DNA of 24,373 bases, taken from an uncultured Thermoanaerobaculia bacterium (GTDB lineage: Bacteria; Acidobacteriota; Thermoanaerobaculia; Thermoanaerobaculales; Sulfomarinibacteraceae). Each line of letters begins with the position of its first letter. Position 1 is the first letter of the stretch. Below, piece after piece: positions 1,872 through 20,652 of this stretch. The notes under the pieces were generated by a model. That model was not told the DNA's origin. It saw only the letters and a program-made list of their open reading frames with translations, and did no database searches. The position numbers were made by a program, and so were the translations under genes. The stretch is from positions 1-24,373 of the forward strand of contig CAZKKP010000010.1 in NCBI GenBank assembly GCA_964553295.1. The letters are read 5' to 3'.

Positions 1872-4217
1872 TCAAGGCCGGCCTGCCGAGCCCACGGCTT
1901 GCGCCCGGTCGAGCCCGGCGAGGGCGGCGTCGAGCCCGGCGACGGTGCTGCTGCCCTCGCCGGATGCGGTGACGGCGATGCGGCGGGCGCGCTCGAGGTC
2001 GGCCCGGGCCTCGTCGAGCCGCCCCTGGGCGAGCCGGGCCTCGCCGACGGTGGTGAGCGGCGCGACGAGGTTCGGGCTGTCGGCGCCGTAGGCGGCTTCG
2101 CGGATGGCGAGAGCCCGGGAGGCGATCGCCTCCGCCTCGCCGTGCTGCCCGCGCAGGGCGGCGATGTGGGCGAGCCAGGCGAGGGCGGAGGTCAGCTCCG
2201 GGTGGTCGGGGCCGAGGGCGCGCTCGTAGATCGCGATCGCCTCGCGGTAGCGGGCCTCGGCGCGGTCGAGGTCGCCGCGCTCCCGGTCGATGCCGGCCAG
2301 GTTGCCGAGGGCGGTCGCGACCCGCGGGTGGTCGTCGCCGTAGACCTTCCGGCGCAGCTCGAGGGACTCGCGGTAGAGCGCCTCGGCGCGGTCGAGATCA
2401 CCCATCTTCTTGTAGGTGAGCCCGAGGTTGTTGAGGGCGGTGGCGATCCGGGGGTGCTCCGGGCCGAGCAGCCGGCGCCGCATCTCGAGGACCCGCTCGC
2501 CGACGGCGGCAGCCTCGTCGAGCTCACCGGCGTTCTTCAGGGCGATGGAGAGGTTGTTGAGAGTGGTGGCGACCCGGGGATGGTCGAGTCCCCATGCCGC
2601 CTCCCGGACAGCGAGCGCCCTGCGGCAGACGGGGAGCGCCTCGAGGGCCCGGCCCTGGGCGTCGATGACGACGCACATCTCGTTGAGGATGTCGCCGACC
2701 AGCGGCGAGGCGGGCTCGAGCCGGCGCTCGCCGAGCTCGAGAGCCTGGCCCAGGATCGCCTCGGCCTCCGAGAGCTCGCCCCGGTTGAGAGCGATCCTGG
2801 CGCACGAGCTCAGGCCCTGGACGGCGTGGCCCGGGTCGAGGTCCGGCGTCGCCGCGACCAGCCGGTGGATCGGGCCGGCGACCTCGGCCCCGCGCTCGAG
2901 GTCGGCGAGGTGGACGCAGAGGTCCGCCAGCCGGGTCCGGGCCTGGATCTCGGTCTCGGCGCTGCGTTCGGGGAGGGCGAGAACCCGCTCGAGCGCGCTC
3001 TCGAGCAGGGGCAGCGCCCGGTCATAGAGGCCGAGCCGCGCGGTGACCTCGCCCATGATGCCGAGCAGCCGCGCCTGGGTCGCCGGTCGGTCGACGAGCT
3101 CGGAGCGGATGCGCTCGGCGCCGCGGTCGAGGAGCTCGCGGGCCGAGACCTCCTCGCCGGGGGAGCGGTCCGGGTCGGAGACCTCGAAGACGCCGACCAT
3201 GAAGTCCGCGATCTCCTGCGCCTCGGCCTCGCGCGCCTCGGCGAGGTCGCGCTCTCGCTTCAGGTCGCTGGTGTACTTCACCCAGCCGCCCACTGCGACG
3301 GCTGCCAGGGCGACCAGCGCCAGCGCCGCCACCGCCATGGCCGCCGTGGTCAGCGGGTTCTTCCGCGCCTTGCGCAGCATCCGCTCCCGGAGGCCGAGGG
3401 GCCGGGCCTCGACCGGCTCGCCGTCGAGGAAGCGGCCGAGGTCGTCGGCGAGGGCGCGGGCCGAGGGGTAACGCCGGTCCGGGTCCTTCTCGAGACAGGT
3501 CGCCACCACCGTCTCGAGGTCCCGCGGCACCGATGGCGCATGTCGACGCAGCGGCGCCGGCTCGTCGGACAGCAGGCTCACCAGCAGGCTCGCGTTGCTG
3601 TCGCCGGCGAACGGCCGCTTCCCGGAGAGGAGCTCGTAGAGGATCACCCCGAGGCTGAAGACGTCGGTGCGCCGGTCGATCCCGGCGACATCGCCGCGCG
3701 CCTGCTCCGGCGACAGGTATCCGGGGGTGCCGAGGATCTGCCCGGTAAGGGTGAGGCCGGGCACCTCCTGCTCGCGGGCGATGCCGAAGTCCAGGACGTA
3801 GGGCCGCAGTCGGCCGTCCCCGTCCTCGCCGACCAGGATGTTGCCCGGCTTGAGGTCGCGGTGGACCAGGCCGGCGGCGTGGGCCGCGTGCACTGCCTCG
3901 GCGACCTGGCGGACCAGCACCACCTTCTGCTCGAGACCGAGCCCCTCGGCCGCGACGTCGAGCTGCCGGCCCTCGACGTACTGCATGGCGATGAAGGGCC
4001 GACCGTCCTCGCCGGTGCCGGCCTCGTACACCTTGCACACCCCGGGATGGTCGATGCGGGCCTGGGCGCGGGCCTCGCGGAACAGTCGCTCGACCAGCTC
4101 GGGATCCTCGTGGCGCAGGTACTTCAGCGCGACGAAGCGCTCGAGCTCGGGGTCCCAGGCCTTGAAGACCTCGCCCATGCCCCCCGCACCGACCTGAACC
4201 GCCGTGTCGTGCTTCAC
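1872..4217 (-). CDS. Membrane Hanks-type Ser/Thr protein kinase with C-terminal TPR repeats, about 781 aa
   Basis: GAGGMGEV, VALK, HRDLKPGN, DFG and YLSPEQ motifs; one TM segment (TAAMAVAALALVALAAVAVGGW); several 42-aa TPR units (HPRVATTLNNL, HPRIATALNNLG, HPRVATALGNLA). GTG 4217 chosen because GGAGGT lies upstream. Confidence 0.93.
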   Translation of the reverse strand: MKHDTAVQVGAGGMGEVFKAWDPELERFVALKYLRHEDPELVERLFREARAQARIDHPGVCKVYEAGTGEDGRPFIAMQYVEGRQLDVAAEGLGLEQKVVLVRQVAEAVHAAHAAGLVHRDLKPGNILVGEDGDGRLRPYVLDFGIAREQEVPGLTLTGQILGTPGYLSPEQARGDVAGIDRRTDVFSLGVILYELLSGKRPFAGDSNASLLVSLLSDEPAPLRRHAPSVPRDLETVVATCLEKDPDRRYPSARALADDLGRFLDGEPVEARPLGLRERMLRKARKNPLTTAAMAVAALALVALAAVAVGGWVKYTSDLKRERDLAEAREAEAQEIADFMVGVFEVSDPDRSPGEEVSARELLDRGAERIRSELVDRPATQARLLGIMGEVTARLGLYDRALPLLESALERVLALPERSAETEIQARTRLADLCVHLADLERGAEVAGPIHRLVAATPDLDPGHAVQGLSSCARIALNRGELSEAEAILGQALELGERRLEPASPLVGDILNEMCVVIDAQGRALEALPVCRRALAVREAAWGLDHPRVATTLNNLSIALKNAGELDEAAAVGERVLEMRRRLLGPEHPRIATALNNLGLTYKKMGDLDRAEALYRESLELRRKVYGDDHPRVATALGNLAGIDRERGDLDRAEARYREAIAIYERALGPDHPELTSALAWLAHIAALRGQHGEAEAIASRALAIREAAYGADSPNLVAPLTTVGEARLAQGRLDEARADLERARRIAVTASGEGSSTVAGLDAALAGLDRAQAVGSAGRP

Positions 4218-4258
4218 CGGTCCGCCACCTCCAGTTTGTCGGCGCAGAACGCAACTCA

Positions 4259-4366
4259 AGTCTAACCCGAGACCCGAGAAGAACCCCTCCAGGGCGCCCA
4301 ACGAGACGTGAGGGGCCGATCGTCTACGCGGATTTCGCGCCAGCGAAATCCGACACCCACTACAAT
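4259..4366. promoter_or_regulatory. Divergent promoter region with a perfect inverted repeat
   Basis: TAGACT on the minus strand (4264-4259) faces the kinase; TACAAT on the plus strand (4361-4366) faces the voltage-sensor gene; CGGATTTCGC-gcca-GCGAAATCCG at 4329-4352. Confidence 0.5.
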
Positions 4367-4388
4367 CCCTCTGGGAGACCTCTCGCCA

Positions 4389-5870
4389 ATGGGCCTGATC
4401 TCAGCATGGAAGCGCCGTTTCGGCCGCCTGACCGCCCGGCTGGCCTGGGACCTGTTCATGGTCTGGGTGGCGCTGGTCAACCTCGGCCTGATCGCCTTCG
4501 ACCTCACCTATCTCTGGCTGCGGCCCCACTACGTCCACTGGGTGCCGGTGGTGGCCCGGGTCTACGACCCGGTCAAGGGGATCGAGCCCCATCCCCTCAC
4601 CGAGCAGCTTCGGGTGGAGCTGGAGGCGGTCCAGAAGTTGGTCGAGCTGGCCCCGGCTTCCGCCGAGCTCGAGCACCGCCTGGTCGACCTTCGCCGCCTG
4701 ACCGAGCGGATGCTGGTCGAGAACCCCTTCGACCGCGCCGGCCTGGGGCGCAGCTTCGAAGCGCTGAGGACCGCCATCGCCCGGGAGACCGGCCACCGCA
4801 GCGCCGATCTCGCCAGCCCCGGGGTCGCTGCGGCGGCGGCCGCCGAGCTGTGGCCCGACTCGGCGGCCGATGTGCGGGAGCGCCTGACCCGGCTCGGTCC
4901 GGCCTTCGAGCGCGCCCTGACCGAGAACTACTACCGGGAGTTCGACCGCGCCGGTCGACTCGAGGACCACTTCTGGCTCCTCGACCTGCCGTTCCTGGCG
5001 CTGTTCTGGACCGAGTTCGCGGTGCGCTGGACCCTCGCCATTCGCCGCGGCGCCCACGCCCGCTGGTTCTTCTTCCCGATCTTCAACTGGTACGACGTGC
5101 TCGGGCTGCTGCCGGTGGGCTGGCTGCGCCAGTTCCGGCTGCTCCGGCTGGTGGCCATCTACATGCGGCTGCGGCAGAGCGAGCTCTCCGCCGTCGGCAA
5201 GGACTACGTCACTCGCACCGTCGCCTACATCTCAAACATCATCACCGAGGAGGTCTCCGACCGGGTCGCGGTCCGCATCCTCGACGAGTACGCCGAGGAG
5301 ATCGCCGACGGCACGCACGCGAGGATCGCCCGCGCGGCGGTCCTGCCGCGGCAACGTGACATCGCCCGCGCCCTGGCCGACCAGATTGCCCAGCTGCTGA
5401 CCGACGAGGCCACTCTCGACCACTTCCGCCGGCTCCTCCGGCTCAACCTCGAGACCGCCATCGCCGAGTCGGAGTCGCTGCGGTCGGTACCGCTGCCCAA
5501 CGCGGTAGTGCGGCCGATCGTCCGCGTGGTCGGCGAGGTGCTGCTCGAGACGACGCTGGAGACCGTCCGTGCCACCCTCGACACCGAGGAGGGTCGGGCC
5601 GCCGTGGAGAGCGTCGCCGACGCCGCGCTGGAGCAGCTCCTCACCGGGCCCTGGCTGGGCCAGGTCGAGGCCCTGGCCCGCGACATCTCGCTCGACGTCA
5701 TCGAGCAGATGAAGGCCACCGTGGCCGTGCGCAAGTGGGCCCTGCCCAAGGACCACCCCAAGAGCCAGCGCCCCGCCTCCCTCACCGAGGTCCTCGACGG
5801 CATCGCCGGCGAGGATCCGAACGCGAAGCGAACGGGTGCAGTCGAGGAGCGCGTCAGCCGTCGAGGGTGA
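4389..5870 (+). CDS. Ion-transporter-like membrane protein: voltage-sensor domain S1-S4 plus a helical cytoplasmic tail, no pore domain, about 493 aa
   Basis: S1 LAWDLFMVWVALVNLGLIAFDL; about 150-aa loop; S2 FLALFWTEFAVRW (FxxExxxR); S3 FNWYDVLGLLP (NxxD...P); S4 LRQFRLLRLV (RxxRxxR). The downstream sequence is amphipathic with no S5/S6 or selectivity filter. Confidence 0.8.
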   Translation: MGLISAWKRRFGRLTARLAWDLFMVWVALVNLGLIAFDLTYLWLRPHYVHWVPVVARVYDPVKGIEPHPLTEQLRVELEAVQKLVELAPASAELEHRLVDLRRLTERMLVENPFDRAGLGRSFEALRTAIARETGHRSADLASPGVAAAAAAELWPDSAADVRERLTRLGPAFERALTENYYREFDRAGRLEDHFWLLDLPFLALFWTEFAVRWTLAIRRGAHARWFFFPIFNWYDVLGLLPVGWLRQFRLLRLVAIYMRLRQSELSAVGKDYVTRTVAYISNIITEEVSDRVAVRILDEYAEEIADGTHARIARAAVLPRQRDIARALADQIAQLLTDEATLDHFRRLLRLNLETAIAESESLRSVPLPNAVVRPIVRVVGEVLLETTLETVRATLDTEEGRAAVESVADAALEQLLTGPWLGQVEALARDISLDVIEQMKATVAVRKWALPKDHPKSQRPASLTEVLDGIAGEDPNAKRTGAVEERVSRRG

Positions 5871-7434
5871 AGTAGACGGTGGTGCCGTGATCGGGCTGCG
5901 ACTCGACCCAGACCCGTCCGCCATGTCGCTCGACGATGCGGTGGACGATCGCCAGCCCGACACCGCTGCCGCCATACTCGTCGGCCCGGTGTAATCGCTC
6001 GAACAGCTGGAAGACCCGCTCTGCGTGTCGCATGTCGAAGCCCACTCCGTTGTCGCGCACGAAATAGACCACGCCGGCTTCGGCGCCCCCGGGCCGGCTC
6101 TCGCCCAGAGTGCCGACCTCGATCCGGGCCGGCTGCCGTATGCGACTGAACTTGAAGGCGTTGCCCAGGAGGTTGTCGACGCACAGCCGGAGCAGCGTCG
6201 GGTCGCCACTGGCCTCGATCCGCTCCGCTACCCGCAGCTCGAGCTGCCGGCCGGGCTCGAGCAGGCAGAGCTGCGCCGCCGCTTCCCGGGCATAGCGCGC
6301 GAGGTCGACCGGGCAGCTGGTCATCACGGTCCGGGAGGCTCGCGAGACCATCAGCAGGTCGTCGATCAGGCGCTCCATCCGCTCACCGGCGCGCAGCACC
6401 CGCTCGAGGTAGTCGGTTGCCACCTCGCCAAGCTGGGCGCCGTACTCCTCGAGCAGGGCGCCCCCGAAGCCCCGAATGGCCCTGAGCGGCGTCTGCAGAT
6501 CGTGAGAGACGGTGTGGCCGAATGCCTCGAGATCGCGATTTGACGCCTCGAGCCGGCGGTTGAGCTCGCGCAGTGCCTCCTCGGCCTGCCGCCGGTCGGT
6601 GATGTCCCGAACCACCCACACCACCAACGACCGCCCTCTCGGATCGACGTGCAACGTGGCCCTCACCGCCCACCAGCGCGTTCGCCCCGAGTCGTCGGCG
6701 AGCTCGAGATCGTCGTTGACAGCGCCACCGATGCCGCGCACCCGGTCGTCGATAACCTGCAGACGCTCCGCCACCGCTGGCCCGAAAAGCTGGTCCGCGG
6801 TCTTGCCGAGGGTGATCGTCGGCGGCTGCCCGACCAGCGCCGCTGCGGCCTCGTTGACCTGCACCCAGCGCCCGCGAAAGTCGGTCGCGAAGACCGCCTC
6901 GGGAACGGCGTTGACCAGCGTGAAGAAGTGGTCCCGTGCTTCCGCGAGCTCCCGCTCGAGACGACGCCTCTCGGTCACGTCCCGCGCCACACCCGCCGTC
7001 CCGGCGATGTCTCCACGGCTGTCGTACAGCGGGACCTTGATCGTCTCGATCCAGGTCCGCCCTTCGGCGAGCAACCCGGCGAGCTGCTCTTCCACGCGGC
7101 GGACCTTCCCGGTGGCCATCACGAGCTGGTCATCGTGGACGTAGCCCCGGGCCAGGTCCTCCGGCCAGATGTCGAAGTCGGTCTTTCCTATCAAGATGTC
7201 CCGGTTCACGCCGCACGACTGAAGGAACGGCTCGTTGACCTCCAGGAAACGGCCTTCGCGGTCCTTGAGCCAGGCGATCTCCGGAAGGCTGTCGAGGAGC
7301 GAGCGCAGTGCTGTTTCCGTCGCTGCACGATCGCTCATCTCAGAGGCGGCCTCCGCCGACCCGCCGCGTCGAGGCGCCGTCGCGTCGAGGTCGGAGTTGG
7401 ACCCGTCGAGGGTGGGGCTTCCGGGGACAGCCAC
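5854..7434 (-). CDS. Cytoplasmic PAS-PAS sensor histidine kinase, 526 aa from GTG 7434 or 494 aa from ATG 7338
   Basis: Two PAS/PAC units (IAWLKDREGRFLEVN...IETIKVPLYDSRGDIAG; VFATDFRGRWVQVN), H-box VSHDLQTPL, N-box VDNLLGNAFKF, VRDNGVGFD, GSGVGLAIV. No TM segment. The 731-aa ORF call extends this gene antisense into the next one. Confidence 0.92.
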   Translation of the reverse strand: MAVPGSPTLDGSNSDLDATAPRRGGSAEAASEMSDRAATETALRSLLDSLPEIAWLKDREGRFLEVNEPFLQSCGVNRDILIGKTDFDIWPEDLARGYVHDDQLVMATGKVRRVEEQLAGLLAEGRTWIETIKVPLYDSRGDIAGTAGVARDVTERRRLERELAEARDHFFTLVNAVPEAVFATDFRGRWVQVNEAAAALVGQPPTITLGKTADQLFGPAVAERLQVIDDRVRGIGGAVNDDLELADDSGRTRWWAVRATLHVDPRGRSLVVWVVRDITDRRQAEEALRELNRRLEASNRDLEAFGHTVSHDLQTPLRAIRGFGGALLEEYGAQLGEVATDYLERVLRAGERMERLIDDLLMVSRASRTVMTSCPVDLARYAREAAAQLCLLEPGRQLELRVAERIEASGDPTLLRLCVDNLLGNAFKFSRIRQPARIEVGTLGESRPGGAEAGVVYFVRDNGVGFDMRHAERVFQLFERLHRADEYGGSGVGLAIVHRIVERHGGRVWVESQPDHGTTVYFTLDG

Positions 7435-7440
7435 AGGGCG

Positions 7441-7508
7441 ATTGTACCCGATGGGAACACGCAGCTGGGTGAGAGCTCTGCGCTTCTGTCGGCCGGGCGA
7501 GCTAGACT
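7441..7508. promoter_or_regulatory. Back-to-back -10 elements for the two divergent histidine kinase genes
   Basis: Minus strand TACAAT (7446-7441)-N6-GTG(7434, in frame with the kinase); plus strand TAGACT (7503-7508)-N8-ATG(7517). Confidence 0.5.
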
Positions 7509-7516
7509 GCCGGTCG

Positions 7517-9367
7517 ATGGTCAGCGCCGTTGACGCTCCGGAGATCGCAATCCTCCTCGTCGAGGACGCGGACGACGATGTCGCGCTGATCATCCGCGAG
7601 CTGGGCCGTAGCTCGCTGCGCTGTGCGATCCACCATGCAGCTACCGTTGACGCGGCTGCGGCGGCCATCTCCGCCCAACCTCCCGCTCTGGTGCTGTCGG
7701 ACTTCCGACTGCCGCCGAACGACGGCTTCGACCTGCTTCGCGCCGTCCAGGCGCTCGACCCGGAGCTGCCGGTGGTCTTCGTGTCCGGCGCGGTCGGCGA
7801 GGACGTGGCCGCCGAGCTCATGCGCTGTGGCGCCCGCGACGTCGTCAGCAAGCGGAACCTCGCCCGCCTGCCGCTCACCGTCCAGAGAGTGCTCGACGAG
7901 GCCGCCACACGCCGCGAGCACCACCGGGCGCAGCAGGCTCTGCGGGAATCCGAAGCCCGGATCAGAGCCCTGTTGACCACCTTGCCGGTGGGGGTCTTCC
8001 GCGTCGGGCCGGACGGTCGGATCGAGTCGGCCAACCCGTTTCTCTGCATGATGGTCGGGGCTTCAGACGAGAGTGAGATGCTCGGCAGGCACTGGCGCGA
8101 CTTCGTCGTCGAGCAACCTCGAGAAGATCTGCCGCCCGGAGGACTGGGAGCAGACGTCGTCGAGCTGGAGCTTGCGATCCGCCGTCTCGATCAGACCGAG
8201 TTCTGGGGACACGCGCGAGTTCGCGTCAGTCCGGGTAGGGACGGGGCGCCGCACGTCGACGGCACCCTCGCCGACGAGACCGCTCGTCACAGCGTCCAGG
8301 ATGCGCTGCGTCGCGGAAAGGAGGAGTGGGAGCGGACATTCGACGCGGTGCACGAGCTGATCATGCTGACGGACCCGGTCCACGTCGTCGAGCGGGTCAA
8401 CCGGGCCGTCGCCCAGAGGCTGGGTTGCCATCCTCGAGAGATCGTCGGTCAGACCTGGGCCGAGATCGTTGCGCAGCGACTCCCCCCGGTGGACCTCCGG
8501 CAGCTGATCGAGGCGGTGCGCTCGGGAAAGCCGGTCGAGTTCGACGTCGCCAGCGAGCAGCTGGGGGGAGACTTCAGGTTCAGCGCCACGCCGCGAGTGG
8601 ACCATGCCGGCGCGATCATCGGCATGATCCTGGTCGGACGCGACGTCACCACGCAGCGGCAGGTGGCGGAGCTGCTGCAGCGCCAGGCGGTCGTCGACCA
8701 GGCCGAGCACATCTTCAGGATTTTCAGGCACGAGGCCGGCAACGCCCTGAACACCCTCAAGACAACCCTGAGCGTCTTCAGGCAGGGTTTCGTGTCCTTC
8801 GACGACGCCAAGCGCGAGACCTACTTCGGTCGCTGCTTCGAGAGCCTCCGCATCGCCGAGCAGCTGCTCGCCGCTCTTCGCTCGTACCAGACTCTCGACC
8901 GAGTGACGCTCAGCGAGGTCGACGTCGCCGCCCTCCTCGAATCACGTGCCGACATGCTCTTCGCAACGGCTCGCGAACGGGGCGTTACCTGCGAGCTGCA
9001 CTGTCCCGACGCGCCCCAGGTGATCGCGGCCGATGCGGACGCGCTGGTCAGGGTGCTGCTCAACGTCGTCGACAACGCCCTGGCTGCCACGCAGGACAGG
9101 GACGCGCCGCGCATCGACATCGATCTGCACCTCGCGAGCGCTCACACCACGATCTCGATCACCGACAACGGCGCCGGCATTCCCTCCGACGTGTTGCCGA
9201 GGATCTTCCAGCCCCTCTTCACGACCCGGGCCGAGGGCACCGGGATGGGCCTTGCGATCGTCCAGAAGCTGATGCTGCGGATGAACGGAGTGGCGGAGGT
9301 CCGCAGCGTCGTCGACCAGGGCACGGTCGTCGAGCTGCGCTTCCCGGCGGCGGGCCCGGCCTCATGA
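7517..9367 (+). CDS. Hybrid receiver-PAS-PAS histidine kinase, 616 aa
   Basis: REC domain (ILLVEDADDD, VLSDFRLP, VVFVSG), two PAS domains, H-box FRHEAGNALN, N-box LLNVVDNA, ITDNGAGI, IFQPLFTT, GTGMGLAIV. No TM segment. Confidence 0.92.
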   Translation: MVSAVDAPEIAILLVEDADDDVALIIRELGRSSLRCAIHHAATVDAAAAAISAQPPALVLSDFRLPPNDGFDLLRAVQALDPELPVVFVSGAVGEDVAAELMRCGARDVVSKRNLARLPLTVQRVLDEAATRREHHRAQQALRESEARIRALLTTLPVGVFRVGPDGRIESANPFLCMMVGASDESEMLGRHWRDFVVEQPREDLPPGGLGADVVELELAIRRLDQTEFWGHARVRVSPGRDGAPHVDGTLADETARHSVQDALRRGKEEWERTFDAVHELIMLTDPVHVVERVNRAVAQRLGCHPREIVGQTWAEIVAQRLPPVDLRQLIEAVRSGKPVEFDVASEQLGGDFRFSATPRVDHAGAIIGMILVGRDVTTQRQVAELLQRQAVVDQAEHIFRIFRHEAGNALNTLKTTLSVFRQGFVSFDDAKRETYFGRCFESLRIAEQLLAALRSYQTLDRVTLSEVDVAALLESRADMLFATARERGVTCELHCPDAPQVIAADADALVRVLLNVVDNALAATQDRDAPRIDIDLHLASAHTTISITDNGAGIPSDVLPRIFQPLFTTRAEGTGMGLAIVQKLMLRMNGVAEVRSVVDQGTVVELRFPAAGPAS

Positions 9368-11040
9368 GCACGTCCCGGTTCCCCGGGCTGGCGCGAACCG
9401 TGGATCCACTCCTGGGAACCGTGGTCGGCGGCAGGTTCCTCCTCGAAGCGCGGCTGGGCGCCGGGAGCATCGGCACGGTCTACCGCGCGCGGCATCTCCT
9501 CATCGGCCGCGAGGTCGCCATCAAGGTCATGAGCCTCCCTTCTTCCCGTCGCGAGCGCTACCGGGCGTGGTTCCTGCGCGAGGCGCGTGCCGTGAACCGG
9601 GTCAACCACTGTCACGTCGCCGAGATCTACGACCTTGGGGAAACCCCGGATGGCGCGGTCTTCCTCGTGATGGAGCTGCTGGAGGGTGATCGCCTCTCCG
9701 ACCGCCTGCGCGCCGGGCCGGTTCGGCAAGACCTCGCCCTGAGCATCCTCGAGCAGGCGGCAGCAGCACTCGGACGCGCCCACGATCTCGGTGTCGTCCA
9801 CCGGGACCTGAAGCCGGACCATGTCTTCCTCGTGGAACGCGGCGGCCGCCGTGACTTCGTCAAGCTGGTCGACTTCGGCCTGGCCTGGCTCAGCCACGAG
9901 AACCGGATCGCGGCCCGCGGCCAGGTACTCGGAACGCCGACGTACCTGTCTCCCGAGCAGGCTCGAGGCGAGGACGGTGGACCTTCCTCCGACCTCTACT
10001 CCCTGGGGGTCGTGCTGTTCGAAATGCTCACCGGCCGGCCGCCGTTCACCACGGACGACCCGGTCGAGCTGCTCGAATGCCACAGGTCGGCACAGCCGCC
10101 GGATCCCCGCCGGTTGAGGTCGGATCTCGCCGACGATGTGTGCCAGGTGGCACTTCGACTGCTGGAGAAGCAGCCCGAACGACGTTTTCGGGATGCGCAC
10201 CACCTGCACGACGAGCTCAAGATCACCCAGCGCCGGCTGGGCGCAGGGGAGGTGTGCCCGCTCACGCCCATCGACGGTTCGCCGGCAATCGGTGGCGAGC
10301 GATCCCATCGTGTTCCGGTCTCGTGGGCCTACCGCGTCGCCCTGCTCGCGTGCAGTGTCGCGGCGGCCTACCCGGATGGTGGGCCACCCGGTGCGGTGAC
10401 CACCGCCGTGGAGGAGATGTGGCGGCTGGTTGCCGAGCTGGCCCGGGTGGAGGGAGAGCTCGAGGTGTCGGAACGATGGAATGACAACCTCCGTGCTCGG
10501 GGCCGCGAGACCGGATCTCGTCTTGGCCGAGAGATCGAGGACCTGTCGCGGCTGAGCTCGCGCCTCGAGCGAGAGCAGGAGTCGGCCGCCCTTGCCGCGG
10601 AGGAGCTTCGCTCGGCTCGGCAGGCCGCGTCGAGCGCGCTGGACCTCGCCCGTCACGAGGCGCGGGCCAGCGAGGCCGCCGGGCACTCCGAGGCGATGCG
10701 CCGCGCCCTGGAGACGGCGGGCGCCGCCGCCGCTCGTGAGCAATGGCTGCGCGAAGAGATCGACCGGCTCGCGGCGGACTGTGCCAGACGCGAGCAGGTC
10801 GTCGCCCAGGCCGCTCGGCAGGCGGCGAGGCTCCGCAGCCAGCTCGAGCGCCAGGCCACCCAGGTCGAAGGGGAGCTGGCGAGCGGGCAGAGCCGTGCTG
10901 CCGGCCTGATCGCTGCGCGATCCAGCCTGCTCGAGCGGATTCAAGGCTGCGAGCGTCTGCTGCGTGAGCATCTGGTCCGGCGGCCGGAGGGTCGCTTGCT
11001 GCTCGACGAGCTCGACGCTGCCGGAAGCGGAGATCCTTGA
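9364..11040 (+). CDS. Cytoplasmic Hanks-type Ser/Thr kinase with a long C-terminal coiled-coil region, 558 aa
   Basis: GAGSIGTV, VAIK, HRDLKPDH, DFG and YLSPEQ motifs; heptad-rich E/R/A tail; ATGA overlap with the upstream histidine kinase. The 904-aa ORF call includes an out-of-frame 5' part. Confidence 0.9.
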   Translation: MSTSRFPGLARTVDPLLGTVVGGRFLLEARLGAGSIGTVYRARHLLIGREVAIKVMSLPSSRRERYRAWFLREARAVNRVNHCHVAEIYDLGETPDGAVFLVMELLEGDRLSDRLRAGPVRQDLALSILEQAAAALGRAHDLGVVHRDLKPDHVFLVERGGRRDFVKLVDFGLAWLSHENRIAARGQVLGTPTYLSPEQARGEDGGPSSDLYSLGVVLFEMLTGRPPFTTDDPVELLECHRSAQPPDPRRLRSDLADDVCQVALRLLEKQPERRFRDAHHLHDELKITQRRLGAGEVCPLTPIDGSPAIGGERSHRVPVSWAYRVALLACSVAAAYPDGGPPGAVTTAVEEMWRLVAELARVEGELEVSERWNDNLRARGRETGSRLGREIEDLSRLSSRLEREQESAALAAEELRSARQAASSALDLARHEARASEAAGHSEAMRRALETAGAAAAREQWLREEIDRLAADCARREQVVAQAARQAARLRSQLERQATQVEGELASGQSRAAGLIAARSSLLERIQGCERLLREHLVRRPEGRLLLDELDAAGSGDP

Positions 11041-11152
11041 CCTTGTCTGCACGTCGGATCCGTCGTCACCGATAGCGCCAGACAGGGCTGCCACACGTGG
11101 CGTCTCTCCAGCTCGCCAACCACCGGCCTCGCACTGACCGAAAGCGAGCGAC

Positions 11153-11169
11153 CTGGCAGCACACCTGCT
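11153..11169 (+). promoter_or_regulatory. Candidate sigma-54 (-24/-12) promoter upstream of the activator gene
   Basis: CTGGCAGCACACCTGCT; GG at 11155-56 and GC at 11167-68 give the correct 10-nt spacing; about 80 nt upstream of ATG 11250. Confidence 0.5.
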
Positions 11170-11249
11170 CCACGCCGATGACGACGGCGTGCGCGGGCCG
11201 ATCGCGAACGACGTATGATGGAGGCTCAGCGTGCCGAGGTGCGCCGGGG

Positions 11250-12632
<1,383 letters not shown>

Positions 12633-18470: not shown

Positions 18471-19002
18471 CCTCGAGGTCGCAGCGGGCCTTTCGCGCAT
18501 CCTGCGGGAGCGCCGGCCTACGACCGACCCACTCCCGACCTCGCCCGCGGCACGGTTCAGCCGGCACGCCCCGGTCCAGGCCGCGCCCCCGGCGATCGAA
18601 CCGGCCGACGGTCAGGATCCCGAGCTCGAGCTGGTCAAACTTGACAGCTGGGAAGTGTTCCTCGCCTGGAGCCTCGAGCTCACCAGGTCCCGTGCAGGTT
18701 TCGTCGTCGACTCCCAGGGCTTCGTGATTGCGAGCCGAGGCAACGTACCGAAGGACGGGTTTGACGGCATCGGGGCCGAGCTGTGCTACGCGATGGACCA
18801 GCTCGACAAGATCAGTCCCGAGTCCGGCCACCTCAGAGTGCTCGAGCTCGGGTTCACCGGCAGCCGCATCACGGGCATCAAGATCGCGGGTGAGGCACTG
18901 GGCCCCCTGGTCATCGGGTTCTTGGGGTCGCGCCCACTCACCGACGAGCTTCGCGACTCCATCGTCCGTCAGCTGGACTTGAACCGGGAACGGATGTCAT
19001 AG
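18442..19002 (+). CDS. Hypothetical protein with a Pro-rich linker and a Roadblock-like C-terminal domain, 186 aa
   Basis: GGAGGT precedes ATG 18442; overlaps the ParA-family gene by 29 nt; RAGFVVDSQGFVIASRG resembles the Roadblock beta-hairpin 'VVDxDGxxI'. Confidence 0.65.
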   Translation: MTRPNVSSFDLEVAAGLSRILRERRPTTDPLPTSPAARFSRHAPVQAAPPAIEPADGQDPELELVKLDSWEVFLAWSLELTRSRAGFVVDSQGFVIASRGNVPKDGFDGIGAELCYAMDQLDKISPESGHLRVLELGFTGSRITGIKIAGEALGPLVIGFLGSRPLTDELRDSIVRQLDLNRERMS

Positions 19003-20652
19003 ACCGGACTCCTCAGCAGGCGTCCACCGCGGTGTCGGCGGCGGGGCGCGGTCCAGGGTAGCGAGGCCGGCGGCCTGGGAGAGCCAGGCCCTGACCGGCG
19101 TCGGGCAGCGGCCCTCCAGAAGCAGGCGGTCCGGCCCGCGGGCCTCGAGCACGAGGCAGGCCGGCGGCGGCTCCTTGAGGTGGAAGGCGGCGTGTGAATC
19201 CTCGAGAGCAAGCAGGTGGCCTCGCCCGTGCGCCTCGATCACCAGGCCCGAACTCGGATGGTGAAGGTCGAAGGATGTGAGGACTCGGACAGCGGGTCCC
19301 GGCAGGCGCTCCCGCCGCTCCAGCGTCAGCGCCTCGCCGAGGCCGTGGCGCAGGATGTACGCCCCGCGGATGTTGTCGGGCACCGCTGCGATCAGCAGCT
19401 CGTGCTCGCCCGCGACCTCGGCGGCGGCCGCCACCACGGCACGCGCCAGCTCGCCGGCGTGCTGCCAGGCGCCGTTCGCCCACCACAGCAATGCCGCGCC
19501 GACGACAAGCGCGCCGCAGGACGCCATGCGCCAAGCCCGGGCGGTTCTCGCCAGAGAGGTCAGCACCGCCGCCATCCCGACCGCTGCGAACGCCGAGGGC
19601 AGGTAGAGGAAGCGGTCGCTCTCGGTGGTCAGAAGGCGGGTCGGCAGGTGCAGCACCGGCAGCAGGGCGAGGCCCGCCGAGACGGCCGCCACCGCCACGA
19701 CGGGTCGCACGTCGGGGCGACGGCGCAGACCGAGCCACATGGCCACGCCCAAGACCGCCAGGGGGATGACCGTCAGCAGGGCCACGAGCCACGGCTCGTC
19801 GCGCACCGGCCAGTGGGTCGCCGCCAGCCGGGCCGGCCACTCGGCCCCCGCCAGCTTGACCAGGTGCACCGCCGCCAGCCGGGCCGACCGCGCCGCCTCC
19901 GGGGCCGCCGACAGCGGCCCCCGCCACGGGTGGTCGAGGACGAGCAACCGCACCGCGAGGTAGACCACGGTGAGGGCCAGATGAGGCCATGCGGTCCGCA
20001 CCGCGACCAGGAGGCCATCGAGGCCGGTCGGCCCCTCCGGCCGGCGACCCGGGCGGAGCACGACCAGCAGCGCCGGCGTCACGATCGCCGACTCCTTGCT
20101 CGCCAGGGCCAGGCCGTAGGCCGCCGCGGAGAGCGCCGCCAGCCAGAGTCGAGGCCGGTCGAGATGGGCCGCCCACGTCAGCAGCGCGAGGAGGACGAAG
20201 AGCGCGGCGTAGAGGTCGGTGCGGCCCGAGATCCAGGTCACCGACTCGGCGTGGCAGGGCGCCACCAGGAAGAGCCCCCCCGCCAGCCAGCCGATGCGGC
20301 GGGGGGGGTCGCCACCCGCCGCCGCCCCGCCGACCCGGCGCGCGAGGCTCGCCGCGAGTAACCCGACCAGCACTCCGTTGAGCGCGTGGACGAGCACGTT
20401 GTGCAGGTGGAACGGCACGGGGCTCGGGCCCCACACCGCGAGGTCGAGGGCCAGGGACAGGGACACCAGGGGCCGCAGGAACTCGCCCCCCCCCGACCAC
20501 AGGCCGAAGGGGCCCGCTGCCAGAATCCTCGCGACGTGGACGAAGTCGTCGGACAGGAAGCCGACGCCCAGCGCCCGCGCGTACACGGCGAGGGCCACCG
20601 GGACCGCCACAGCCAGACCGAGCGCCGGACCGAGCCGGTACCGCTGATCCAC
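18997..20652 (-). CDS. Multi-TM GT-C-fold glycosyltransferase (TMTC/PMT-like), 551 aa
   Basis: First-loop FLSDD, FLRPL, PFHLHNVLVHALN, HAESVTWISGRTDL, LASKESA and SDRFLYLPS; many hydrophobic helices; no TPR tail. Confidence 0.8.
   Translation of the reverse strand: MDQRYRLGPALGLAVAVPVALAVYARALGVGFLSDDFVHVARILAAGPFGLWSGGGEFLRPLVSLSLALDLAVWGPSPVPFHLHNVLVHALNGVLVGLLAASLARRVGGAAAGGDPPRRIGWLAGGLFLVAPCHAESVTWISGRTDLYAALFVLLALLTWAAHLDRPRLWLAALSAAAYGLALASKESAIVTPALLVVLRPGRRPEGPTGLDGLLVAVRTAWPHLALTVVYLAVRLLVLDHPWRGPLSAAPEAARSARLAAVHLVKLAGAEWPARLAATHWPVRDEPWLVALLTVIPLAVLGVAMWLGLRRRPDVRPVVAVAAVSAGLALLPVLHLPTRLLTTESDRFLYLPSAFAAVGMAAVLTSLARTARAWRMASCGALVVGAALLWWANGAWQHAGELARAVVAAAAEVAGEHELLIAAVPDNIRGAYILRHGLGEALTLERRERLPGPAVRVLTSFDLHHPSSGLVIEAHGRGHLLALEDSHAAFHLKEPPPACLVLEARGPDRLLLEGRCPTPVRAWLSQAAGLATLDRAPPPTPRWTPAEESGL

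Follow-up and report, generated by a model that had tools for sequence, protein, structure and literature searches.

A prokaryotic family of voltage-sensor-domain proteins without an ion pore and with two uncharacterised accessory domains

A stretch of 24,373 nucleotides from an uncultured Thermoanaerobaculia bacterium, positions 1 to 24,373 of contig CAZKKP010000010.1 in assembly GCA_964553295.1, which is referred to here in its whole length as the window, encodes on its forward strand a protein of 493 amino acids (aa) that is a true homologue of the S1-S4 voltage-sensor domain (VSD) of ion channels, as established by profile-profile comparisons together with structural matches, and that has no ion pore. 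The protein belongs to a large family, which is a previously undescribed prokaryotic version of the pore-less VSD proteins, carrying two uncharacterised accessory domains, one inserted between S1 and S2 and one following S4. As to its function, the balance of the evidence tilts slightly towards a stand-alone VSD protein that would report membrane potential, that is, the status of the proton-motive force, rather than conduct ions. An earlier note on this DNA had proposed either a voltage sensor or a proton conductor of the Hv1 type; sensor homology is borne out, whereas the hallmarks of Hv1, an aspartate in the middle of S1 and a tryptophan in S4, are missing.

Only four segments of the protein reach transmembrane grade in hydropathy analysis, with the approximate limits given for S1 to S4 in Table 1, and these agree with the helices of an AlphaFold2 model (aa 16-51, 195-220, 228-240 and 244-263). 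All the motifs that the earlier note had read as an S1-S4 signature (S2 FxxExxxR, S3 NxxD...P, S4 RxxRxxR) are present, and the charge-transfer centre and the S4 arginines are 80-100% conserved, conservation being counted here and below over 148 diverse family members with 20-60% identity to the query. Specifically, S2 reads F206-W-T-E209-F-A-V-R213, S3 reads N233-W-Y-D236-VLGLL-P242 and S4 reads R247-QF-R250-LL-R253, with the S4 arginines falling at every third position and the spacing of S2, from D199 to R213, being that of canonical sensors. The charge-transfer centre is complete, comprising the aromatic plug F206, the inner acidic residue E209 and the acidic residue D236 of S3, and S2 also carries the outer acidic residue D199. 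In S2, D199 is kept in 146 of the 148 members (acidic in 100%), F202 in 146, and R213 in 120; position 206 is phenylalanine in 132 and tyrosine in 16 (aromatic in 100%), and position 209 is glutamate in 129 and aspartate in 17 (acidic in 99%). S3 retains W226 (137), W234 (138), Y235 (144) and P242 (146), together with an acidic residue at position 236 in 100% of the members (142 D, 6 E). As for the S4 arginines, R247 is found in 119 members (80%), R250 in 146 (99%), R253 in all 148 (100%) and R260 in 133, and the fourth periodic position is occupied by a small residue (S256: S in 93, P in 16, A in 13). Finally, S1 conserves D21 (121/148), N31 (142/148), F37 (135/148) and D38 (136/148). Judged from these alignments, the sensing residues are under strong selection in the family. 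The link between S3 and S4 is very short, about 3 residues, and a gap of 12 residues is needed to align it with canonical channels in hhalign. Basic residues cluster before S1 (K8, R9, R10, R13, R17) and after S2 (R219, R220, R225), so that by the positive-inside rule the N-terminus and the S2-S3 loop would be cytoplasmic and the S1-S2 insert periplasmic.

The absence of a pore, which the earlier note had also recorded, emerges from several observations. Neither hydropathy nor the AlphaFold2 model contains a fifth or a sixth transmembrane segment, and hence there is no S5-P-S6 unit. Moreover, Ion_trans (PF00520) is absent from the contig in all six frames, with the same model scoring 3.8e-31 on the real channel of this genome. 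The homologues are counted in hundreds, are full-length and have the same ends as the window protein, while the DNA 3' of the gene is occupied by a convergent kinase gene, into which the sensor gene ends. Since no pore is found in any frame and more than 400 clusters of homologues have the same architecture, the gene is not truncated. Six transmembrane helices with a pore loop, a pore region displaced by a frameshift and a lack of any structural match to VSDs, the outcomes that the earlier note had singled out as damaging to its proposal, were looked for and none of them occurred.

Homology to the sensors of ion channels becomes visible in profile-profile comparisons. A Pfam search of the protein gave only a sub-threshold match to Tmem26, and NCBIfam only a sub-threshold match to MurR/RpiR; sequence searches of the PDB with the single sequence and with a 25-sequence profile returned nothing meaningful, and in PADLOC neither the window protein nor two of the family's short forms had a match. 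As a reference, a profile was built from 16 canonical Ion_trans channels of this genome and its relatives. In hhalign, S2-S4 of the 148-member family alignment matches this channel profile with 93.8% probability (E value, E, 1.8e-7), with F206/E209/R213, D236/P242 and R250/R253 in register with the channels. S1-S3, once the columns of the insert are removed, matches with 96.4% probability (E 1.4e-9), as compared with at most 1.7% for 30 column-shuffled control profiles. In addition, the family contains natural short forms of about 335-350 aa, which are without the insert and have an S1-S2 loop of about 35 aa; 60 of these align with the channel profile from S1 through S4 in one alignment (95.7%, E 1e-8).

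The structural comparison leads in the same direction. An AlphaFold2 model built from 25 close sequences was poor across S3-S4, with a predicted local distance difference test score (pLDDT) below 50 for aa 227-289, and it was replaced by a model built from 148 diverse sequences (pLDDT 91.4, predicted template modelling score 0.71). In an exhaustive search of 48,161 chains with VIA-align, proteins of the voltage-gated-channel superfamily made up the 11 best rows and approximately two thirds of the top 50. The sensor matches all cover the model from about aa 11-15 to aa 263-275, with Z scores of 7.2-9.1, and include HCN3 (Z 9.1), Slo2.2 (Z 8.8, 4.5 Å over 110 residues), Kv1.2 (Z 7.8, 4.4 Å over 106) and the isolated VSD of Ci-VSP (4g7v; Z 7.4, 3.5 Å over 104 residues), as well as KvAP (Z 7.4, 3.3 Å over 103, and Z 7.2; range 3.3-4.0 Å over about 103-107 residues). 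Searches of AFDB clusters and of the ESM Atlas retrieved family members only, and Foldseek against Swiss-Prot models gave only weak matches of the long-helix type, among them a weak whole-chain similarity to chemoreceptors.

Table 1. Features of the pore-less voltage-sensor gene, its neighbours and one related locus (window positions unless a locus is named)
Feature	Position	Strand	Basis or detail
Complete coding sequence (CDS), pore-less voltage-sensor protein	4389..5870	+	493 aa + stop
S1 (aa 17-44), conserved D21, N31, F37, D38	4437..4520	+	hydropathy, AlphaFold2, channel alignment
S1-S2 insert (aa 45-194), folded helical bundle	4521..4970	+	AlphaFold2, VIA-align, motifs
S2 (aa 195-218), D199-x6-F206-xx-E209-xxx-R213	4971..5042	+	conservation, channel alignment
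S3 (aa 226-243), W226, P230, N233-W234-Y235-D236...P242	5064..5117	+	conservation
S4 (aa 244-263), R247-xx-R250-xx-R253, S256, then R260	5118..5177	+	conservation, AlphaFold2, channel alignment
Putative cytoplasmic all-helical domain (aa 264-447), six long helices	5178..5729	+	AlphaFold2
First post-S4 helix (aa 273-306), motif I-x-E287-E288-(V/I)-S290-D291-R-V293	5205..5306	+	AlphaFold2, conservation
C-terminal motif V-x-V-(K/R)-K-W-x-L-P (aa 445-453)	5721..5747	+	homologue alignment
Variable tail (aa 454-493), predicted disordered	5748..5867	+	AlphaFold2, no alignment among homologues
Divergent neighbour, Ser/Thr protein kinase with TPR repeats (Pkinase+TPR)	1872..4301	-	Pfam
Convergent neighbour, PAS-PAS-HisKA-HATPase histidine kinase (signalling cluster)	5854..8049	-	Pfam
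REC-PAS histidine kinase (signalling cluster)	7235-9367	+	
Ser/Thr kinase (signalling cluster)	8326-11040	+	
REC sigma-54 activator (signalling cluster)	11097-12632	+	
Short-form homologue	L123:5749-6798		
minC	L123:6940-7659		
minD	L123:7702-8538		

The first of the two accessory domains separates S1 from S2. The earlier note had described it as an unusually large loop of about 150 aa, and its length is correct; it is, however, not a loop, being modelled as a folded helical bundle with pLDDT 96-98 that is closed off by a small two-stranded sheet. In VIA-align it resembles generic four- or five-helix bundles, with aa 68-180 matching SipD (Z 7.8, root mean square deviation 2.9 Å over 101 residues) and talin R7R8 (Z 7.0). 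Among close homologues the insert contains the conserved motifs YDPVxGIEPHPLT, ENPF and NYxR. Feature searches of the ESM Atlas with the insert, and likewise with the C-terminal domain, gave scores of 0.76-0.78, under the useful range.

The second accessory region comprises the 230 aa downstream of S4. Here too the length given by the earlier note stands, whereas its charged, amphipathic helices extend only to about aa 447 and are followed by a disordered tail (pLDDT 34-47 over approximately aa 470-493 and below 50 for aa 480-493). In the model, S4 is separated by a 9-residue break (aa 264-272) from a 34-residue helix with pLDDT of about 90-96, which carries the most conserved soluble motif of the family (E287 in 121 of the 148 members, E288 in 136, S290 in 120, D291 in 125 and V293 in 139) and which may well be the element coupling the sensor to the cytoplasmic domain. 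At the end of the helical domain a further motif is found, in which, over 25 close members, W450 never varies and conservation reaches 90% or more at V445, V447, K449 and P453; its consensus VxVKxW is retained in diverse sets. No Pfam or NCBIfam domain was detected in aa 264-493, nor a PTEN-like phosphatase or other recognised catalytic domain, and in VIA-align the cytoplasmic domain matches only generic long-helix or coiled-coil structures such as Rad50 and the cytoplasmic domains of chemoreceptors. A similarity of the C-terminal domain to DUF445/UPF0754 proteins in Foldseek is weak (YjiN, probability 0.75; UPF0754, probability 0.90; TM-score about 0.2). PF04286 (DUF445) has zero matches in this genome, and hhalign gave 1% probability against a very small profile of four DUF445 proteins. 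An entry in an AFDB cluster listing, A0A3T1DXF9 (182 aa), corresponds solely to aa 279-450, and because it covers only this part the cytoplasmic domain may also exist on its own.

Pore-less voltage sensors, namely Hv1, the voltage-sensing phosphatases and TMEM266, are regarded as eukaryotic inventions. The nearest prokaryotic point of reference is provided by the channels with six transmembrane segments (KvAP, NavAb/BacNav; S1-S4 of PF00520), which have the same four-helix bundle, the same presumed topology with the N-terminus inside, and the same S2 D-x6-F-xx-E-xxx-R, S3 N-xx-D-x5-P and S4 R-xx-R-xx-R in register. Compared with them, the window protein has no S4-S5 linker, S5, P-loop or S6, its S3-S4 link is about 12 residues shorter, the Pfam hidden Markov model is not significant, and a 150-aa folded S1-S2 insert and a 185-aa post-S4 cytoplasmic helical domain are added. 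With eukaryotic Hv1/HVCN1 it shares a VSD without pore, an S4 with three periodic arginines and a small polar residue after them, a short S3-S4 link and helices after S4. It differs from Hv1 in being bacterial, in having an asparagine in mid-S1 in place of the selectivity aspartate (the equivalence to Hv1 D112 being taken from spacing rather than from a direct alignment), in the break after S4, which in Hv1 would run straight into a coiled coil, and in the missing tryptophan of the RxWRxxR signature (PMC10377628), position 249 being phenylalanine in this protein. Ci-VSP likewise combines a VSD with a cytoplasmic part and no pore, and the VSDs superpose; the cytoplasmic part of the window protein is, however, all-helical, with no PTEN-like phosphatase found by Pfam or NCBIfam. 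The vertebrate, non-conducting TMEM266 (HVRP1) likewise consists of a VSD on its own to which helices are added after S4, and is not known to have an effector (PMC13095418). No relationship in sequence was detected, no search aimed at it having been made; the periplasmic insert and the cytoplasmic domain differ, and the window protein is bacterial.

According to a 2023 review, all prokaryotic VSDs known so far come together with a pore domain, and channels of the Hv type are absent from both bacteria and archaea (PMC10377628). Bacterial sensors without a pore are likewise missing from the lists of two recent reviews of VSDs (PMC13661669, PMC13095418). In the open-access full-text literature, no publication on a prokaryotic pore-less VSD or on this family was found. 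It is because the reviews report none and no description was found that we regard the family as new. Against its novelty it can be said that some database entries already bear the generic label 'ion transporter'.

If the window protein does report membrane potential, it might operate in the following way. Depolarisation would move S4 outward, as in canonical sensors, on account of the presumed cytoplasmic location of the N-terminus and of the S2-S3 loop. This movement would be relayed through the short post-S4 linker to the acidic helix (E287, E288, D291) and then to the six-helix cytoplasmic domain, which would change its conformation or its binding to a putative partner. In the long forms, the predicted periplasmic bundle in the S1-S2 loop would cap the outer face of the sensor and may tune it. 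In a more general formulation, the chances appear about even that the family consists of autonomous bacterial voltage sensors, devoid of a pore, in which membrane potential is read out into a cytoplasmic helical module.

A number of observations weigh against this interpretation. First of all, voltage dependence, S4 movement and output are all things that we infer. Pfam Ion_trans (PF00520) does not match the protein, and a marginal match (E 0.0067) appears in only 2 of 46 family members. The short S3 and the minimal S3-S4 link are unusual for a sensor. The structural match to VSDs anticipated by the earlier note was obtained with VIA-align, KvAP and Ci-VSP included, and not with Foldseek, which had no match against the PDB at E <= 0.001; moreover, Z scores of 7-9 in VIA-align lie, according to the tool itself, within the range that helical bundles reach by chance, and weight is therefore placed on the enrichment of VSDs among the matches and on the register of the sequences. 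Lastly, neither a recognisable effector domain nor a conserved partner accounts for the target of the cytoplasmic domain, and the missing partner gene suits an autonomous activity, for example conduction, at least as well as signalling.

The strongest alternative is that the VSD itself conducts, either as a voltage-gated channel for protons or small ions like Hv1 or through omega (gating-pore) currents, with the cytoplasmic helices regulating or oligomerising it. It would be in keeping with a stand-alone gene for a pore-less VSD with no conserved partner, with the very short S3-S4 link and with an S4 that has arginine at only three periodic positions and a small residue, S256, at the next; the S4 of Hv1 carries R-R-R-N at the corresponding positions. 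Furthermore, there is a precedent in a molluscan proton channel, AcHv3, whose S1-S2 loop is very large and whose intracellular domains are large as well (PMC10377628). We consider conduction unlikely, though well worth bearing in mind, as the polar residue of mid-S1 is an asparagine (N31, in 142 of 148) and not the aspartate of Hv1 proton selectivity, the invariant S4 tryptophan of Hv1 is missing (position 249 is L in 77, F in 55 and W in 9 of 148), and the two countercharges are preserved together with the aromatic plug F206, as they are in sensors that do not conduct. The S1 aspartates, which the earlier note had put forward as candidates for an Hv1-like selectivity residue, find no support in that role: D21 and D38 align with the acidic residues at the inner and outer ends of S1 in ordinary channels.

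Alternatively, the fold might resemble a VSD and no longer sense voltage, its helices anchoring the periplasmic bundle and relaying ligand, lipid or mechanical signals inward, a relay to which that of the S1-S4-like domains of TRP channels may be likened. The folded insert with its conserved motifs, its similarity to four-helix-bundle domains in VIA-align and the weak whole-chain similarity to chemoreceptors in Foldseek all fit such a role. This possibility is nonetheless rather improbable: the short forms, which are without the periplasmic domain, retain both the charge-transfer centre and the arginines, and R250, R253, F206, E209 and D236 are conserved almost throughout, as would be expected under selection for charge translocation and not of a mere anchor.

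A little less probable still is a detachable sensor subunit that docks within the membrane to a pore or transporter encoded by another gene, for instance a K+ channel of the RCK type with two transmembrane segments (2TM), and confers voltage dependence in trans. VSD and pore modules are indeed separable: in published work the sensor of Ci-VSP was fused to the pore of Kcv, and a co-assembly involving Kir2.1 has likewise been reported (PMC3581695, PMC13755035). In 2 of 10 related loci, the sensor gene is preceded at a distance of about 1.7-3.9 kb by a gene for a 2TM K+ channel that has RCK domains (Ion_trans_2 + TrkA_N + TrkA_C; L046:3143-4282 and L050:413-1483). On the other hand, the two genes are never adjacent, neither the window nor the other 8 loci contain the K+ channel gene, and no membrane-protein neighbour recurs across phyla. 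As for a truncated or frameshifted remnant of a channel gene with six transmembrane segments, for which only the absence of the pore speaks, it is extremely improbable and was rejected on the strength of the shared ends of hundreds of full-length homologues, the six-frame search for Ion_trans-like sequence, the coding-type GC of the codon positions and the convergent kinase gene that fills the downstream DNA.

Should the family consist of autonomous voltage sensors, this would overturn the published view that each prokaryotic VSD is attached to a pore (PMC10377628), and it would support the idea of the VSD as a module that existed in its own right, whether earlier than the fusion to pores or in parallel with it, with a bearing on the modular origin of voltage-gated channels. 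More than 400 clusters in several phyla combine a complete sensing machinery with no pore and with two domains that have no curated family. If the proteins are voltage-sensing, they would represent a dedicated bacterial sensor of membrane potential and a compact new scaffold for studying and engineering the coupling of voltage to a soluble domain, and the Acinetobacter homologues would offer a culturable and genetically tractable entry to membrane-potential sensing.

The protein has 419 matches in a collection clustered at 90% identity, the closest with 62% identity, and one of them is named 'ion transporter' by NCBI; at 50% identity, 414 clusters match it, 293 of these at E <= 1e-10. Fragments and fusion variants aside, two pore-less architectures, the long and the short, are common to the 414 clusters. 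By record titles, the close relatives belong to Thermoanaerobaculia / Candidatus Sulfomarinibacteraceae (Acidobacteriota). Short forms occur in related loci of Acinetobacter bereziniae, A. guillouiae, A. nematophilus, Chitinophagaceae and Wenzhouxiangella, and clusters of the Atlas add members from Cyanobacteriota and Spirochaetota, so that the family ranges over Acidobacteriota, Cyanobacteriota, Spirochaetota, Bacteroidota and Acinetobacter. Of 18 genomes from the same taxonomic family, 17 have the gene, each as a single copy; a search of 12 genomes from the sister family did not find it. One related genome contains a second, partial copy (G010:C10:4322-4723), an open frame of 136 aa matching only aa 352-487, which may be a fragment or an assembly artefact. 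Among the automatically named UniProt entries, the AFDB cluster representatives A0A2M8HMG8, J0P4E4 and K9VLJ5 are members of the family; names such as 'Uridine phosphorylase' and 'Preprotein translocase subunit SecA' are evidently wrong.

Regarding the gene itself, the CDS is contained in an open reading frame (ORF) spanning 4308..5870 (+). Because homologues begin at the methionine encoded by the ATG at 4389, with which their N-termini line up, the start was set there and the product at 493 aa; GGGAG is found 11 nt 5' of this ATG, and the in-frame GTG at 4308 appears less likely as a start. The frame 4308..5870 (+) has a GC content at third codon positions of 0.92 and is the only long frame there with a coding-type GC pattern. 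The divergent Ser/Thr kinase and the convergent histidine kinase are both found by Pfam where the earlier note had placed them, the latter overlapping the 3' end of the sensor CDS by 17 nt. The convergent kinase opens a dense cluster of kinase and REC genes at 5854-12632 (Table 1). Neighbourhood comparison shows that this cluster is not kept beside homologues of the voltage-sensor gene, nor are the two kinase neighbours conserved there; these neighbours therefore carry no functional weight and say nothing about the effector. Within the taxonomic family, local synteny includes a DEAD/DUF3516 helicase, an aminotransferase, DinB and DUF4199, and no kinases; outside it, the neighbours are unrelated and no operon partner recurs across phyla. 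Among public runs no RNA dataset containing the gene was found, and the best DNA match is a stromatolite metagenome, from which the window itself probably derives.

Two further loci of the family are of interest for their gene context. In Acinetobacter and in one related Pseudomonadota metagenome-assembled genome, the gene for the short-form homologue immediately precedes minC-minD and is read in the same direction, with the order of locus L123 of A. bereziniae (Table 1) repeated in L117-L122, L124 and L125. This arrangement is lineage-specific, not being seen in other phyla, and is worthy of note because the localisation of Min proteins depends on membrane potential. In another locus, L126, probably cyanobacterial, a divergent family member (L126:444-1967, P0222) is a fusion of an N-terminal TIR domain with S1-S4 and stops a short way past S4. 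Its TIR domain matches TIR_2 at 2.4e-28 and also ThsB-like PADLOC models, and the adjacent genes (2045-2836 and 3299-3850) encode LSDAT_prok, a SLOG-type nucleotide sensor, and a SLATT/DUF4231 2TM effector. From its gene content, the locus resembles a module for conflict or defence, with the VSD-like domain as a possible membrane sensor.

At some distance from the sensor gene, the composition of the window is odd between positions 19001 and 21000, with GC of 0.74-0.75 and AT skew of +0.21 to +0.25, far above the remaining window. Two long ORFs that overlap each other on opposite strands, 18997-20652 (-) and 19216-20361 (+), lie in the same place.

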